From assembly GCA_036771295.1 (NCBI GenBank), contig DAIPHP010000001.1:648-64647 (forward strand): a stretch of DNA of 64,000 bases, read 5' to 3'. Source of the DNA: Ilumatobacteraceae bacterium (GTDB lineage Bacteria; Actinomycetota; Acidimicrobiia; Acidimicrobiales; Ilumatobacteraceae). A program made the translations under genes and the position numbers. Each line of letters starts with the position of its first letter. The stretch's first letter is position 1. Below the pieces are notes generated by a model, which was not told the DNA's origin, made no database searches, and saw only the letters and a list, made by a program, of their open reading frames with translations. This document shows positions 58,457 through 64,000 of this stretch, piece after piece.

Positions 58457-59890
58457 TCATGGCTGTGCTCCAGGGGGAATTGCCACCACGAACCGCGCAC
58501 CGCCGCTCGGAGAGGTGTCTACGTACGCGCGACCACCGAGGGCGAGCGCGTGCTCGGCCACGATTGCCAGCCCGAGCCCACTGCCCACGCTGTTGCGCGA
58601 CGCAGTGCCGCGGGCGAATCGTTCGAAGATGCGCAAACGCTCGCTCACGCTGATGCCCGGACCGTTGTCGTCGACGATGAGTAGAAGGTTGCCGTCGTCG
58701 TCGCTGCTCAGCAGGATCTCCGAGGCCCCGCCAGCGTGGTCGCGGGCGTTGTCGAGCAGATTGAGCAGGATTCTCTCTACTCGGCGTCGATCGAGAAACA
58801 CGACATCGTCGTCGCCGAGGTCCGACACGACCAAGACCGAGGCGTAGCCGTGACGACTCGCGATTCGCTCGACGAGCGCCGCCAGGTGCAGTTCCTCGCG
58901 GTTGTCCTGTCCGGCTCGCGCGTCGAGACGACTGAGTTCGAGCAAGTCAAGCACCGTACGGTCGAAGCGTCGAACCTGCGTGGCAATGATCTCGAGCGCT
59001 TGGCGGTTGCGTTCGGAAAGTTCGTCCGAGCGTCCCTTGAGAACGTCGACGGCGGCTCCCAACGACGTGATCGGCGACCTCAACTCGTGGCTGACGTCGC
59101 TGGCGAAACGTTCTTCGCGTTCGATTCGTTCCTGTACGGCGTCGGCCATGTTGTTGAAACTGGCGACGAGTTGCTGGAGGTCGGGGTCACTCTCTGGTTC
59201 AAGTCGCGTGGCGAGCGAACCCTCTGCGATGGTGGTTGCCGCGTCAGTCACTCGTCGGAGCGGCACGAGGACGTTACCGCTGAACAAGAACCCCAAGACT
59301 CCGGCCACCACGGTGATGGCGAGCACGGCGGCTACGAGAGTCGACCGGATCGTACCGAGGGTGTCGGCGACGTCGTTGATTGGAAAGATCTCGAAGTACG
59401 TCGCGTCAATCGCCGGTATCCCGATCGCTACCGCCTCGTAGGGTCGGCCTCCGAAGTCCACGCGTTGCACGCCGCTTCGCCCCGCGAGCGCCTCTCGAAC
59501 GAACTCGGTGGGCAGATTGGATTGAGTGAACCGCAAAGGTGCCTGGGCATAGAAGAGATCCTCGGTTCCGAGATGCAGCACCGCGAAGCCGCTCGGCTGC
59601 GTGCGGAGACCAGTCACCACTTCGCCTGCGTCGGCACGGTTGGATCCAACCAGTGTCCGTACGAGTTGCGCGTTCGCGATCGCTTGGTCGCGCGCCGACG
59701 ACGTCGCTTTGTCAACGAGGTAGTTGCGCGTCGCAGCAAATGTCACGACGCTGAGGATCACCACTCCAATGAACGTCGCCAGTGAGAAGTACGCCACGAT
59801 TCGTGTGCGCAGTCCAGGACGCAACGCTCGAATTCGAAGACTGCGAGCCGGGGCATCGGTATCGGCGGGCACCCGTCCAGCATGGCGCAC
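58457..59890 (-). CDS. Sensor histidine kinase (MtrB-like: TM-sensor-TM-HAMP-HisKA-HATPase)
   Basis: H-box FASDVSHELRSP, N-box LLNLLDNA, G-boxes DDNGPGI and GSGLGLAIV. Uses a GTG start; the exact start is uncertain. Confidence 0.9.
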   Translation of the reverse strand: MRHAGRVPADTDAPARSLRIRALRPGLRTRIVAYFSLATFIGVVILSVVTFAATRNYLVDKATSSARDQAIANAQLVRTLVGSNRADAGEVVTGLRTQPSGFAVLHLGTEDLFYAQAPLRFTQSNLPTEFVREALAGRSGVQRVDFGGRPYEAVAIGIPAIDATYFEIFPINDVADTLGTIRSTLVAAVLAITVVAGVLGFLFSGNVLVPLRRVTDAATTIAEGSLATRLEPESDPDLQQLVASFNNMADAVQERIEREERFASDVSHELRSPITSLGAAVDVLKGRSDELSERNRQALEIIATQVRRFDRTVLDLLELSRLDARAGQDNREELHLAALVERIASRHGYASVLVVSDLGDDDVVFLDRRRVERILLNLLDNARDHAGGASEILLSSDDDGNLLLIVDDNGPGISVSERLRIFERFARGTASRNSVGSGLGLAIVAEHALALGGRAYVDTSPSGGARFVVAIPPGAQP

Positions 59891-59940: not shown

Positions 59941-60032
59941 CGAGCCCAGAATGGTGCAGCCGTATGACGGCTGCCCTGCAGAAGTGTGCGTTTTGTGTAA
60001 CGAATCTCGGTCGTTTGGCAGACTTCAACGCC

Positions 60033-60722
60033 ATGGCACAAATACTCTTGGTCGAGGACGACGCAGGAATTCGTGCCGCCCTCGGTCTTGCGCTTGAGGA
60101 CGAGGGATACAGCATCCTGCAGGCGCCGAATGGTCGCACGGGTCTCTCGCTTGCGGCCACGGAGCAGCCTGACCTCGTGTTGCTCGACTTGCGTCTGCCT
60201 GACATCTCCGGGTTCGAGGTGTGTCGTGAGATTCGGCAGCGAAGCAACGTTCCGATCATCATCGTGACGGCCCAGACCGACACGCACGACCTGGTCGCCG
60301 GACTCGAGGCTGGCGCCGATGATTATGTGACCAAGCCGGTCAACACCAAAGAACTCGCAGCCCGCATCAGGGCAGCACTTCGGCGATTGGTTCGCGAGAC
60401 CTCAGGTCGTTCGCCGGACGTCACACGTTTCGCAGACATCGAGGTGCGCAGAGAGGCCGGAATCGTCACCAAAGCAGGCAAGGAACTGCCGCTCACGAGA
60501 ACCGAGTTTCGGCTGTTGGTCGAGTTCACTGATCACCCGAACATGGTGTTGAGCCGCGATCAATTGCTGGAGCGTGTGTGGGGGTACGACTATCTCGGCG
60601 ACAGCCGTCTCGTAGATGCCCACATCCGGCGGTTGCGAGTGAAAATCGAGGACTCGCCGAACGACCCGCGTTACATCACGACCGCGCGCGGCCTCGGATA
60701 TCGGTTCCACCCCGACGCTTGA
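60033..60722 (+). CDS. OmpR-family response regulator (MtrA-like)
   Basis: Receiver domain ILLVEDD...DLVLLDLRLPD...KP and winged-helix output domain (LTRTEFRLL...RGLGYRF). ATG at 60033. Confidence 0.92.
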   Translation: MAQILLVEDDAGIRAALGLALEDEGYSILQAPNGRTGLSLAATEQPDLVLLDLRLPDISGFEVCREIRQRSNVPIIIVTAQTDTHDLVAGLEAGADDYVTKPVNTKELAARIRAALRRLVRETSGRSPDVTRFADIEVRREAGIVTKAGKELPLTRTEFRLLVEFTDHPNMVLSRDQLLERVWGYDYLGDSRLVDAHIRRLRVKIEDSPNDPRYITTARGLGYRFHPDA

Positions 60723-62595
60723 ACTTGAGGTAGAACTCCTGCACTTCGTCGATCGACGAAGTCTCGGGCATGTGCTGCACGCCGTGCAGCACGAGCGACT
60801 TGTAGCGACGTTTCGACAGGCGCGGGTCGAGGATCGCCACCACGCCGTGATCGGTGGCGGTACGAATCAGGCGTCCCGCGGCCTGCGCCAGTGACGCAGC
60901 GGCGATCGGGACATCGACGGTGATGAACGACTCCTTGCCGGCGTCCTCACGCCTGGCCTCGAGGAGCGGATCCTGCAAAGCGGGGAACGGAACCTTGTCG
61001 ATGATGACGAGTCGCAATGCGTCGCCAGGCACGTCGACGCCCTGAAAAAAGCCACGGGTTGCGAACAGGCAGGAGTGCACGTTGCTGCGGAATTTGTCGA
61101 GCAACAGTTTTTTCGGCATGTCGTCTTGCGCCAGAAGCTCAATGTCCTTGCCGAGGCTCCCTCGCAGCGATCGAACGGCCTCGTTGAGTGCCGACCAGCT
61201 GGTAAAGAGCACGAGTGCCGATCCTTCTGACATCTCGATCAGCTCGGCGATGCGCTGGTGTACTGCTTCAGCGCGAGAGACCGCGTTTGGTTCAGGGAGG
61301 TCGTCGGCCAGATACAACAATGAGCGATTGGCGTAGTCAAACGGGCTCGGAACGTGCACGATGTCGTCCGGCTCGACCGCCAAGCCGAGTCGCTGCGGCA
61401 ACCCGGGCGGAATCGTCGCACTGGTAAGAATCGCGGTGTTCTCGTGCCACACCGGAGCAAGAACCGCATGTACTCGCAACGGGGCCGAGGTGAGCCGTGG
61501 AGCTCCGCGATTCTCCGTCACGAACGACACCATGTTGCTGCCGGCTTCCAACACGTTCTCAAGGTCTTTTTTCGTTCGATCAAGTACCGACTTTGCGCGT
61601 AGTGCCTCGGGGGTTTCGCTCGTCATCGCGCGCAATTGATCGACAAGCAGGGCAACCTGTGACTGAGCCGAACGCAAGGCGTTCTCGACGTCAGCCGGCA
61701 ACTGTTGCCGAAACCGCTTTCCTACGTGAACGGCAAGCACGCTCTCCAGTTCGGTCGCCGTTCGCGCGAGCGCGTTGGCTACCTTCTGCGACGACACTGC
61801 CTTTCGTGCGGCCTCTGAGGCGTTTGTCAGCCCTCTCGGGGAGATGATCACCGAAGCGGTGTCGCTGATGACGTCTTCCAGCTCGTGCACTTCGTCGAAC
61901 ACCGCAACGTCGTGGTGCGGAAGAAATTCTCGCTGTTGCTGCAAGTCAAGCCCGTAGAGGCTGAAGTTGACGACGACGACGTTCGCGGCCGACGCATTTT
62001 CTCGCGCTCGCTCGGTGAAGCACGTCTCGCCGAACTCGCACTTCGCGGCACCGGGGCACTCGTCGGAAGAGAGGCTCACGCGTCGCCACGCTGAGTCAGA
62101 GATGGCGAACGGAACGTCTGACGAGTCGCCCGTCATCGTTTCGGTTGACCAAGCGACAAGCCGCTGAACTTCTCGTTGGACGACGCCAGTGTCGTCCTCG
62201 AGCGCGAGCTGGTCGTGTCCGGTCTCGATCTCCGAGACTCGTTGCCGGCACAGATAGTTGTTGCGGCCCTTCAGCACGGCCCAGGTGAACGCGAGATCGT
62301 CGTCCTCGTCGCACACCTCGGCCAAGAGAGGCAAGTCGACGGACGCAAGCTGGTCTTGCAACGCCTTGGTGTACGTGGCAACCACTGCGGTTTGCCCGGC
62401 CGCCAGCACGGGAATCAGATACCCGAGTGTCTTGCCGGTACCGGTGCCTGCCTGGATGACGAGCGATTCGCCCGATTCGATCGCATCGGCGACGTGCTGC
62501 ACCATCTCCGCTTGTCCCTCGCGTTGCTCGGCGCGGGGAATTCTCTCCAACACTCGATCGAGGAGGTCGAGGGCCTTCTTTGCAGCCGGCGTCAT
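60676..62595 (-). CDS. dinG: ATP-dependent DNA helicase, DinG/XPD family
   Basis: Walker A AGTGTGKT, DEVH box (VFDEVHELED), C-terminal helicase motifs (LFTSW, QGVDVPG, QAAGRLIR). The ATG at 62595 overlaps the uppS stop (ATGA). Confidence 0.88.
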   Translation of the reverse strand: MTPAAKKALDLLDRVLERIPRAEQREGQAEMVQHVADAIESGESLVIQAGTGTGKTLGYLIPVLAAGQTAVVATYTKALQDQLASVDLPLLAEVCDEDDDLAFTWAVLKGRNNYLCRQRVSEIETGHDQLALEDDTGVVQREVQRLVAWSTETMTGDSSDVPFAISDSAWRRVSLSSDECPGAAKCEFGETCFTERARENASAANVVVVNFSLYGLDLQQQREFLPHHDVAVFDEVHELEDVISDTASVIISPRGLTNASEAARKAVSSQKVANALARTATELESVLAVHVGKRFRQQLPADVENALRSAQSQVALLVDQLRAMTSETPEALRAKSVLDRTKKDLENVLEAGSNMVSFVTENRGAPRLTSAPLRVHAVLAPVWHENTAILTSATIPPGLPQRLGLAVEPDDIVHVPSPFDYANRSLLYLADDLPEPNAVSRAEAVHQRIAELIEMSEGSALVLFTSWSALNEAVRSLRGSLGKDIELLAQDDMPKKLLLDKFRSNVHSCLFATRGFFQGVDVPGDALRLVIIDKVPFPALQDPLLEARREDAGKESFITVDVPIAAASLAQAAGRLIRTATDHGVVAILDPRLSKRRYKSLVLHGVQHMPETSSIDEVQEFYLKFKRRGGTDIRGRARS

Positions 62596-63299
62596 GCCGA
62601 ACGCGGTCTGGCGAGAGCGATTGCGTCGTCGAGCTGGCGCCCGCCGAAATCGGGCCAGGAGCAGTCCGTGAAGAAGACGCGCGCGGCCGCTGCCTGCCAC
62701 AGCATGAAGTTGGAGATTCGTGTTTCGCCAGACGTGCGAACGAGCACGTCGACGGGCGGCAACGACGGGTCGTACAGGTGTCTCGCAATATCGTTCGGCG
62801 TGATCGATGATTGGCCGCTGACGGCTGCCGCCCGTTGCGCGGCTCTTGCAATTTCAGCACGGCTGCCGTAGTCGAAGGCGACGGTGAGCACCATGCCGGT
62901 GTTGTGCTTGGTGTCTTCTATTGCATCGCGAATCGCCTTTTGCACGTTTGCCGGTGTTCGTGATCCGGGCTCGTCGAACGGTCTGCCGATCCAGTTGACG
63001 CGGACGTTGTTGGCGTTCAGTTCCTCGATGCGGCCGAACAGCTTGCGGTGCAGTCCGAGAATGTGCCGCACCTCCGAAGGCGGGCGCACCCAGTTTTCGG
63101 TGCTGAATCCGAACACCGTGAGCCAGCCGATACCGCGATGCGATGCCTCGCGGACGACGGTGGCGAGGGCTTCTTCGCCGGCAGTGTGCCCGGCGGTGCG
63201 GGGAAGTCCGCGTCGCTTGGCCCAGCGTCCGTTGCCGTCCATGATGCAGGCAATATGCAGTGCGCCCGTTCGCTGGTTGGAGATTGGCATGGTGCGCAT
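62592..63299 (-). CDS. uppS: Isoprenyl transferase (cis-prenyltransferase, UppS catalytic type) lacking the C-terminal RxG motif
   Basis: HIACIMDGNGRWA, FGFSTENWVRPPSEV and VRTSGETRISNFMLWQ are present. The usual AYxE is AAAR here, and the protein ends ...AIALARPRSA without RxFG. Confidence 0.9.
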   Translation of the reverse strand: MRTMPISNQRTGALHIACIMDGNGRWAKRRGLPRTAGHTAGEEALATVVREASHRGIGWLTVFGFSTENWVRPPSEVRHILGLHRKLFGRIEELNANNVRVNWIGRPFDEPGSRTPANVQKAIRDAIEDTKHNTGMVLTVAFDYGSRAEIARAAQRAAAVSGQSSITPNDIARHLYDPSLPPVDVLVRTSGETRISNFMLWQAAAARVFFTDCSWPDFGGRQLDDAIALARPRSA

Positions 63300-63331
63300 C
63301 TGAAACTACTTGCTAGTGCGAGGATGTAACA

Positions 63332-63904
63332 GTGGCGCCGCGTACGAGTCTGTCCCATGTCTTGCTGTGCGCCGGTTCGTTGCGCGAGTGGGCGACGACC
63401 GACGCCGAACATTGGCGCGCACGTCTCGAGTTGGTCGCACACGCTGCTCGGTCGGGTGGCGCTGAGTGGGCGACGCTCGTTCCGTATAGCGACGGCGAAC
63501 CGGGGGACGCTGAAACAGTGCGAACGACATTGATCGGGGCGTGCGGCGGCGTGCAATATGCCGATCGCGTTGTCGTGATCGGCGCGGAGGGTGTGACAGT
63601 CATCGTCGATGTCTGCGCCGACGGTCGCGAACGGGTGGCTGCCGCGGCTTCACGCGTCGGTGACGGTCGTATCACCGAACAACGGCTGGCATCGACGCTG
63701 TCGGCGCCGGCACCCGGCGAACCAGACCTCGTCATCGTCTTGGGCAATGCCACCGACATGCCCGCGTCGTTGGTCTGGGAGCTCGCATATGCCGAAATCG
63801 TGTTTCTCGATGCTCCGTGGACGGCTCTCGACGCGGAGCACATTGAAATGGCCATCGACGATTTCGCGCGGCGTGACCGACGATTCGGCGGAATCGACTC
63901 CTGA
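63332..63904 (+). CDS. Degenerate UppS-like (cis-prenyltransferase fold) protein, probably non-catalytic
   Basis: [13 protein letters not shown] replaces DGNGRWA (no catalytic Asp). There is no STENW or RTSGE..R motif. It retains DLVIV...[17 protein letters not shown] and the C-terminal [13 protein letters not shown] start; its stop overlaps the recO ATG. Confidence 0.7.
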
Positions 63905-64000
63905 TGCCCCTCTATCGCGACGTCGGCATCGTGCTGCGCACGCACAAGCTCGGCGAGTCGGACCGAATCATCACGATCATGACCCAAGACTCCGGAAAGG
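63904..64000 (+). CDS. recO: DNA repair protein RecO (N-terminal fragment, continues beyond window)
   Basis: [27 protein letters not shown] matches the RecO N-terminal OB-fold signature. Confidence 0.85.

Follow-up and report, generated by a model that had tools for sequence, protein, structure and literature searches.

A divergent gene pair in Acidimicrobiia predicted to specify a heteromeric, two-subunit cis-prenyltransferase

Textbooks present the undecaprenyl diphosphate synthase of bacteria (UppS; UPPS in Escherichia coli), a target of antibiotics, as the model of a homodimeric cis-prenyltransferase. According to reviews published in 2020, 2025 and 2026, heteromeric members of the family occur in eukaryotes, Methanosarcina and Archaeoglobus and are predicted in a Lokiarchaeote; for bacteria, the same reviews speak of homodimers or of "bacteria-type single-subunit" enzymes, and the origin of the heteromer is placed in Euryarchaeota by one of them. 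In the human complex, the C-terminus of the accessory subunit NgBR crosses the interface and helps to form the active site of the catalytic subunit DHDDS, transverse contacts of the tail with the partner's active site being found also in homodimeric cis-prenyltransferases, and the kcat of the DHDDS homodimer is about 400-fold below that of the complex (PMC7573591). Within the C-terminal RxG motif, the arginine coordinates Mg2+ through water and the backbone nitrogen of the glycine binds the beta-phosphate of isopentenyl diphosphate, IPP (PMC8131916). Here we analyse a 64,000-nucleotide stretch of contig DAIPHP010000001.1 (assembly GCA_036771295.1, positions 648 to 64,647) from a bacterium of the Ilumatobacteraceae, henceforth the window, in which a uppS gene and a gene for a UppS paralog stand head-to-head. 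These two divergent genes are predicted to encode the subunits of a heteromeric cis-prenyltransferase making a polyprenyl-diphosphate carrier, a reading to which we assign a probability of roughly 0.75 and which is the best supported one, resting on complementary motif loss, gene linkage, purifying selection, rate covariation and the parallel with DHDDS/NgBR.

The division of motifs resembles that of DHDDS/NgBR and of Rer2/Nus1, in which the catalytic subunit carries the motifs and is devoid of RxG and of the equivalent of Glu213 (E. coli numbering, as for all UppS residues below), and the accessory subunit has the fold, the Glu and a C-terminal RxG and no catalytic residues. Unlike NgBR, however, the paralog has no N-terminal membrane domain, and, unlike DHDDS, the window UppS has no C-terminal helix-turn-helix; moreover, the host is a bacterium and the product is presumably the C50-C60 cell-wall carrier, not dolichol. 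The archaeal heteromers (M. mazei MM_1083/MM_0618, M. acetivorans MA3723/MA4402 and A. fulgidus Af1219/Af0707), which make medium-chain glycosyl-carrier lipids, are likewise prokaryotic, soluble and two-component, with one RxG-less and one RxG-bearing subunit, but they belong to another domain of life. With the homodimeric UppS (E. coli UPPS, M. tuberculosis Rv2361c, T. fusca dodecaprenyl diphosphate synthase) the locus shares the fold and the catalytic residues, whereas the catalytic motifs and the Glu213 and RxG module, which lie on the same chain there, lie on separate chains here.

The uppS product matches the Pfam family PF01255 with 227.1 bits (cut-off 27; E = 2.4e-67) over profile positions 1-209 of 219, so that the last ten positions are missing, and it scores 204 bits (cut-off 110) against TIGR00055, the model for the full UppS equivalog. 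Its best sequence matches in the Protein Data Bank (PDB) are 7cpn (5e-58), 2vg2 (8e-48) and 1jp3 (6e-45). We aligned it with the paralog, E. coli UPPS, human DHDDS and the cytosolic domain of NgBR, the last two references being identical to PDB chains 6z1n_A and 6w2l_B, respectively, and the E. coli one being confirmed for residues 130-246. In this alignment UppS keeps IMDGNGRWA, the His43 equivalent, FSTENWVRP and RTSGETRISNF, and thus has the catalytic residues of a canonical homodimeric enzyme, yet neither RxG nor Glu213 is present on this catalytic chain. The AlphaFold2 model (predicted local distance difference test, pLDDT, of 77.3 from a shallow alignment) has the secondary-structure elements in canonical order, with helix alpha7 at residues 220-230, after which only five residues follow and the chain ends, at residue 235, in RPRSA. 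Intact motifs without RxG are what characterises the catalytic chain in the heteromeric class.

The paralog shows the converse. PF01255 covers it with 43.8 bits (cut-off 27; E = 2.9e-11) at profile positions 124-219 only, and the NCBIfam search gave the same domain picture and no dedicated model for the 190-residue protein. Its Asp/P-loop motif and IPP-binding loop are replaced by other sequence, and the S71/N74/R77 segment is deleted together with most of helix alpha3; the equivalents of D26, R30, H43, S71/N74/R77, R194 and R200 are lost or deleted, every one of the canonical catalytic residues being either substituted or absent. The AlphaFold2 model is confident (pLDDT 90.5, predicted template modelling score 0.87), disorder being confined to the last five residues, and all of the top 50 Foldseek matches are of the cis-prenyltransferase family (E down to 8e-7, template modelling scores of 0.5-0.65), with UPPS structures leading (0.57-0.65) and NgBR at rank 46. 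Beta-strand A (residues 9-13) is the first element of the protein, nothing being added at the N-terminus, and in comparison with UppS alpha3 is much shorter and the betaC/alpha4 region is absent. In UPPS the betaC/alpha4 region forms the product tunnel. A fold without catalytic residues and with a conserved C-terminal RxG, as in the accessory subunit of the heteromeric class, characterises the paralog, which would thus be a pseudo-enzyme, the assignment to the cis-prenyltransferase fold being confident. A search with the paralog recovered 479 relatives, which among the matches listed are mostly of about 190-200 residues, the named ones coming from metagenome-assembled genomes (MAGs) of Acidimicrobiia/Ilumatobacteraceae, and a profile of divergent members added at least 120 further proteins of 171-241 residues of the same class.

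Conservation within the paralog is concentrated in the part that would meet a partner. The mean frequency of the top residue is 0.73-0.75 in residues 126-190 and 0.43-0.51 elsewhere, and in the model the former stretch takes in betaE and betaF with the linker between them, followed by alpha7 and the tail; the dimer interface of cis-prenyltransferases is made of alpha5, alpha6 and the betaE-betaF linker (PMC7573591). Among the columns that do not vary when 16 or 66 homologues are aligned are W149, Y153, E155, D177, R180, R181, R183, R184, G186 and G187, and W149, Y153 and E155 are conserved across all 80 paralog loci described below.

The complementary motif loss between the two genes, first claimed in a sequence-only reading of this DNA, was thus confirmed by hidden Markov model searches and alignment. 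The same reading had remarked that UppS reads AAAR where homodimeric enzymes have AYxE, and this detail also holds: the paralog and NgBR have retained the Glu, which the window UppS and DHDDS have lost. In the W-Q-x-A-Y-x-E segment, E. coli UPPS has WQIAYAELYF, the window UppS WQAAAARVFF (with Arg207 at the position of Glu213), DHDDS WQTSHSCLVF and NgBR WHIRLTEIVS; at the C-terminus, the NRERRFGG of E. coli UPPS corresponds to RRDRRFGG in the paralog and CEQRLGK in NgBR, while the window UppS stops at RPRSA and DHDDS diverges. The Glu213 equivalent and RxG therefore go together, both kept in the paralog and NgBR and both lost in the window UppS and DHDDS, which, judging from these alignments, strengthens the case for a heteromer.

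This coupling was also found outside the locus, among the 136 full-length representatives (clusters at 50% identity) nearest to the window UppS, a sample in which the clade of the window is collapsed into one or two clusters. Glu at position 213 is accompanied by an R/KxG tail in 126 of them, by the Gly only in three, and by no tail in two (a fragment and a fusion); where Glu is not present, RxG was found in none and five proteins have no canonical RxG. Loss of Glu213 is thus tied to loss of RxG (Fisher p = 5e-6). Together with the DHDDS/NgBR pattern, this association suggests that the Glu works with the tail on the partner's active site, in which case a chain paired with a partner devoid of an active site could do without both. 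In E. coli UPPS, Glu213 probably sits at the interface of the dimer, close to His199 of the opposite chain. It may be speculated that a Lys or Arg at this position of the catalytic chain pairs with the Glu of the paralog, favouring the heterodimer.

Some UppS-like proteins from outside Acidimicrobiia, namely P0500 (L081:1388-2116), P0504, P0475 and P0366 (L083:4248-4994), also have intact catalytic motifs and neither Glu213 nor RxG, as in the segments WQSTNSHLYF...ANCQAIS and WQSADAKIVF...ESYLT. P0500 is encoded on a contig of 35% GC beside alr, a GT4 glycosyltransferase gene and nusG/secE, and the P0366 gene immediately follows one for a trans-polyprenyl synthase; the flanking DNA examined revealed no accessory paralog near either of them. 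These proteins may be further split systems or RxG-independent enzymes.

To follow the pair across related bacteria, one genome per GTDB species was scanned, which gave 80 loci with a full-length paralog (38-75% identity), each examined with about 4 kb of DNA on either side of that gene. A uppS open reading frame (ORF) is present in 78 of the 80 loci and reaches its stop codon in 76, and little DNA lies upstream of the paralog in L019 and L030. The two genes are head-to-head in 77 of the 78 loci with uppS, the exception being L022, in which one gene is inserted. None of the 76 complete uppS genes encodes an RxG, their products extending 12-18 residues beyond WPDF, as against the 20 that separate this motif from G244 in E. 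coli, and equivalents of R242, F243 and G244 are absent from all 77 clade UppS compared. All 80 paralogs, on the other hand, end in a tail of the RRFGG type, RR[DEHNR]RR[FY]G[GS]. The residues D26, G27, N28, G29, R30, R39, H43, S71, E73, N74, W75, R77, E81, D190, R194, E198, R200 and S202 do not vary among the 77 clade UppS, and position 213 is K or R in 59 of them and Glu in a single one (L076). Since it recurs in all 76 related loci with a complete uppS ORF, the motif pattern is far beyond chance, and the co-occurrence of an RxG-less UppS with the paralog, which the sequence-only reading had proposed to survey, is strict in these loci.

The surroundings are also conserved: in 80/80 loci the next gene downstream of the paralog is recO, whose start codon in most cases overlaps the paralog stop, and a helicase gene lies downstream of uppS in 73/78. 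In L002, for instance, a response regulator gene is followed by dinG and uppS, transcribed in the direction of dinG, and then, in the opposite direction, by the paralog, recO (whose product has RecO_N and RecO_C domains), a class II aminoacyl-tRNA synthetase gene, trpC and trpF.

Some loci of the survey deserve separate mention. The uppS ORF of L076 (2584-4299, minus strand) is the one that keeps Glu at position 213 (WQSVGAEVYF), and that of L001 (3240-3974, minus strand) ends in NLVRRGT, with an R-R-G five residues short of the canonical register; these may be intermediate or chance states. The gene inserted between uppS and the paralog in one lake subgroup, i.e. in L022 (1798-3885, plus) and probably also in L030, is on the paralog strand and encodes a polytopic membrane protein of 695 residues with no Pfam match, which, given the neighbouring polyprenyl-diphosphate synthase, may be a membrane enzyme dependent on polyprenyl phosphate. 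The public titles of the lake MAGs of L008, L019, L022, L023, L028, L030, L031, L033 and L065 ('Bifidobacterium breve', 'Ferrithrix thermotolerans DSM 19514' and 'Acidimicrobium ferrooxidans DSM 10331') are probably placeholder or mis-assigned labels, as gene content and synteny clearly point to Acidimicrobiia.

A short UppS next to a degenerate copy could in principle be an artefact, with an assembly frameshift truncating uppS and the paralog being a decaying duplicate. The sequence-only reading had flagged the 3' end of uppS in this respect, and the ATGA overlap with dinG, which sits exactly at the truncated end, was a reason for checking, although nothing else speaks for such an explanation. 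The 235-residue product recurs at 97-100% identity in more than 20 clusters or contigs from independent ENA, JGI and Logan assemblies, all 77 of 77 clade members, some with as little as about 65% identity, share the short C-terminus, and the ratio of nonsynonymous to synonymous substitution rates (dN/dS, Nei-Gojobori) is 0.05-0.14 in uppS and 0.09-0.15 in the paralog, values of about 0.1 being at odds with a decaying duplicate. Independent assemblies, clade-wide conservation and dN/dS thus rule out a frameshift or pseudogene, and we give this explanation practically no chance.

If the pair is indeed a heteromer, UppS would hold its only complete active site, formed by the Asp/P-loop, the S71/N74/R77 segment and the RTSGExRIS IPP-binding loop, and the paralog would contribute what it retains: the RRFGG tail, the equivalent of Glu213 and the dimer interface with alpha5, alpha6, betaE, betaF and the linker joining these two strands. 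The paralog would pair with UppS via the usual cis-prenyltransferase dimer interface and its tail would cross into the UppS active site, in the manner of NgBR and DHDDS; two UppS chains together would be without a tail, and two paralog chains without catalytic residues. A stronger form of this proposal, in which an obligate two-subunit UppS makes the essential carrier in Acidimicrobiia, having arisen by bacterial duplication and degeneration independent of the NgBR lineage, with Glu213 and RxG lost as a unit and the change of Glu to Lys/Arg perhaps favouring the hetero-pair, is in our judgement evenly balanced.

The evolutionary rates of the two proteins are in line with a partnership. Distance matrices of UppS and paralog correlate with r = 0.77 (66 loci), and after regressing out the RecO and DinG distances, taken as proxies for phylogeny, a partial correlation of 0.55 remains (permutation p = 0.001), against 0.16 for UppS-RecO, 0.04 for UppS-DinG and 0.00 for paralog-RecO. 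The rates of UppS and paralog thus co-vary beyond those of the neighbouring genes, which supports co-evolution, and synteny and covariation are indirect support for the predicted physical complex. Some considerations weigh against a heteromer, nonetheless. The covariation falls short of proof because pairwise distances are non-independent, and the physical heterodimer, the donation of the tail in trans and the need for both subunits are what we infer from the evidence above. Furthermore, MM_0014 is an active homodimer without RxG (PMC8131916), and our search for further cis-prenyltransferases covered the 64-kb window and the flanks of about 4 kb, a canonical second UppS elsewhere in the genomes being possible.

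The example of MM_0014 bears on the reading in which UppS works as a tail-less homodimer, another residue or water compensating for the missing motif, and the paralog has some other role, e.g., one linked to recO, to which it is translationally coupled, as it is not to uppS. The P0500 and P0366 proteins, with no RxG or Glu213 and no paralog in their flanks, also agree with it. However, MM_0014 keeps a C-terminal tail that reaches the cavity of its partner and has a promiscuous acceptor site (PMC8131916), whereas the window UppS has no tail, and RxG is described in the reviews as essential for all characterised IPP-condensing cis-prenyltransferases. A working UppS homodimer would, in addition, leave unexplained why the invariant RxG tail, the Glu213 equivalent and the interface of the paralog are under strong purifying selection, as well as its constant adjacency to an RxG-less UppS and the covariation of their rates, and we consider it unlikely.

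The scope of the search is what leaves room for another possibility, namely that the paralog is a dispensable interacting regulator of activity, chain length or localisation and that a second, canonical UppS supplies the essential carrier. Many Actinobacteria do have two cis-prenyltransferases, such as Rv1086 and Rv2361c of M. tuberculosis, both of which are among our PDB matches. Nevertheless, neither the window nor any of the 80 loci contains a third homologue, the RxG-less UppS scores as a full UppS equivalog, and it sits in the neighbourhood of recO, presumably the location of the main uppS in other Actinobacteria, judging by the gene order of M. tuberculosis and Streptomyces. A regulatory paralog beside a second synthase is in our opinion quite improbable, and the two-subunit enzyme is preferred.

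The sequence-only reading had likened the pair to DHDDS/NgBR; the split of motifs is the same, but the paralog is not an orthologue of NgBR/Nus1, for it derives from a bacterial UppS. A paralog profile matches E. coli UPPS with E = 4e-19 and NUS1 with 1e-4; with all targets in one search space, E. coli UPPS reaches 70.8 bits and 38 canonical bacterial UppS have a median of 58.6, vs 26.5 for its own partner clade, 21.0 for NgBR and 15.9 for DHDDS. Identity is 32% over 115 residues with E. coli UPPS vs 24% over 66 residues with the neighbouring UppS. The paralog is, therefore, closer in descent to UppS than to NgBR/Nus1, has no N-terminal transmembrane region and is better regarded as an analogue of that subunit. 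That its C-terminal half strongly resembles bacterial UppS speaks for a separate duplication within bacteria, and its being closest to canonical bacterial UppS, not NgBR, indicates that the split probably arose independently in bacteria. The simplest reading would be that a UppS of the bacterial type was duplicated and the copies then degenerated in complementary ways, in which case one duplicate would have kept the N-terminal catalytic half and the other the C-terminal interface and tail.

The features of the locus are collected in Table 1. The two ORFs, their coordinates and the gap between them were as given in the sequence-only reading, and all the peptides that it quoted (IMDGNGRWA, FSTENWVRP, RTSGETRISNFMLWQ, AAAR and the ending ALARPRSA, plus those of the paralog) are present. 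So are the overlaps of stop and start codons, which are visible in the raw sequence: ATGA between the uppS stop and the helicase ATG (62595-62593) and TGATG between the paralog stop and the recO start (63902-63906).

Table 1. Features of the uppS-paralog locus, in window coordinates.
Feature	Position	Strand	Basis
DinG/YoaA-like helicase gene	60676..62595	minus	NF053712 at 468 bits; Helicase_C_2
uppS, predicted catalytic subunit, 235 residues	62592..63299	minus	PF01255; TIGR00055; clade-invariant catalytic residues
Codon for Arg207 of UppS (equivalent of E. coli Glu213)	62679..62681	minus	Alignment
Divergent intergenic region between uppS and paralog, 32 nt	63300..63331	none	ORF list and raw sequence
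UppS paralog lacking catalytic residues, predicted accessory subunit, 190 residues	63332..63904	plus	PF01255 C-terminal half; AlphaFold2 fold
Paralog W149-E155 (WELAYAE), canonical W-x-x-A-Y-x-E segment, E155 being the Glu213 equivalent	63776..63796	plus	Invariant residues
Paralog R180-G187 (RRDRRFGG), RxG being R184-F185-G186	63869..63892	plus	Invariant residues
recO start, cut by the window end	63904..64000	plus	Translation matches RecO

The genes are arranged start to start, and a scan for promoter and terminator consensus sequences around the 32-nt intergenic region gave no match, including none to the sigma-70 consensus. Such a result, with start codons so close together, implies promoters that overlap, depart from the consensus or are leaderless; actinobacterial promoters of the last two kinds may well lie within the region, and promoters located there could co-regulate both subunits. 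On the other side of the helicase gene lies a convergent gene for an OmpR-type response regulator (59964-60722, plus strand), the 3' ends of the two overlapping by 47 nt (60676-60722), and a histidine kinase gene (58457-59890, minus strand) lies upstream of the regulator gene.

A bacterial, independently evolved two-subunit UppS appears to be a new arrangement, such enzymes being known so far in eukaryotes and a few archaea. An incomplete search of the literature on heteromeric cis-prenyltransferases and bacteria gave no bacterial heteromer in the titles or abstracts of the matches listed, and none of the papers found in an equally incomplete search combined cis-prenyltransferase with Acidimicrobiia. 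If the prediction is true, the split has evolved more than once, and Glu213 and RxG are identified as a single functional module. The pair would also provide a small, soluble and easily expressed model for the way in which an accessory tail completes the active site of a cis-prenyltransferase. Hundreds of proteins of abundant freshwater, marine and soil Acidimicrobiia, now annotated as "undecaprenyl diphosphate synthase family" or "hypothetical", would have to be re-annotated, and these bacteria would offer a clean natural case of a homodimer subfunctionalised into an obligate heterodimer.

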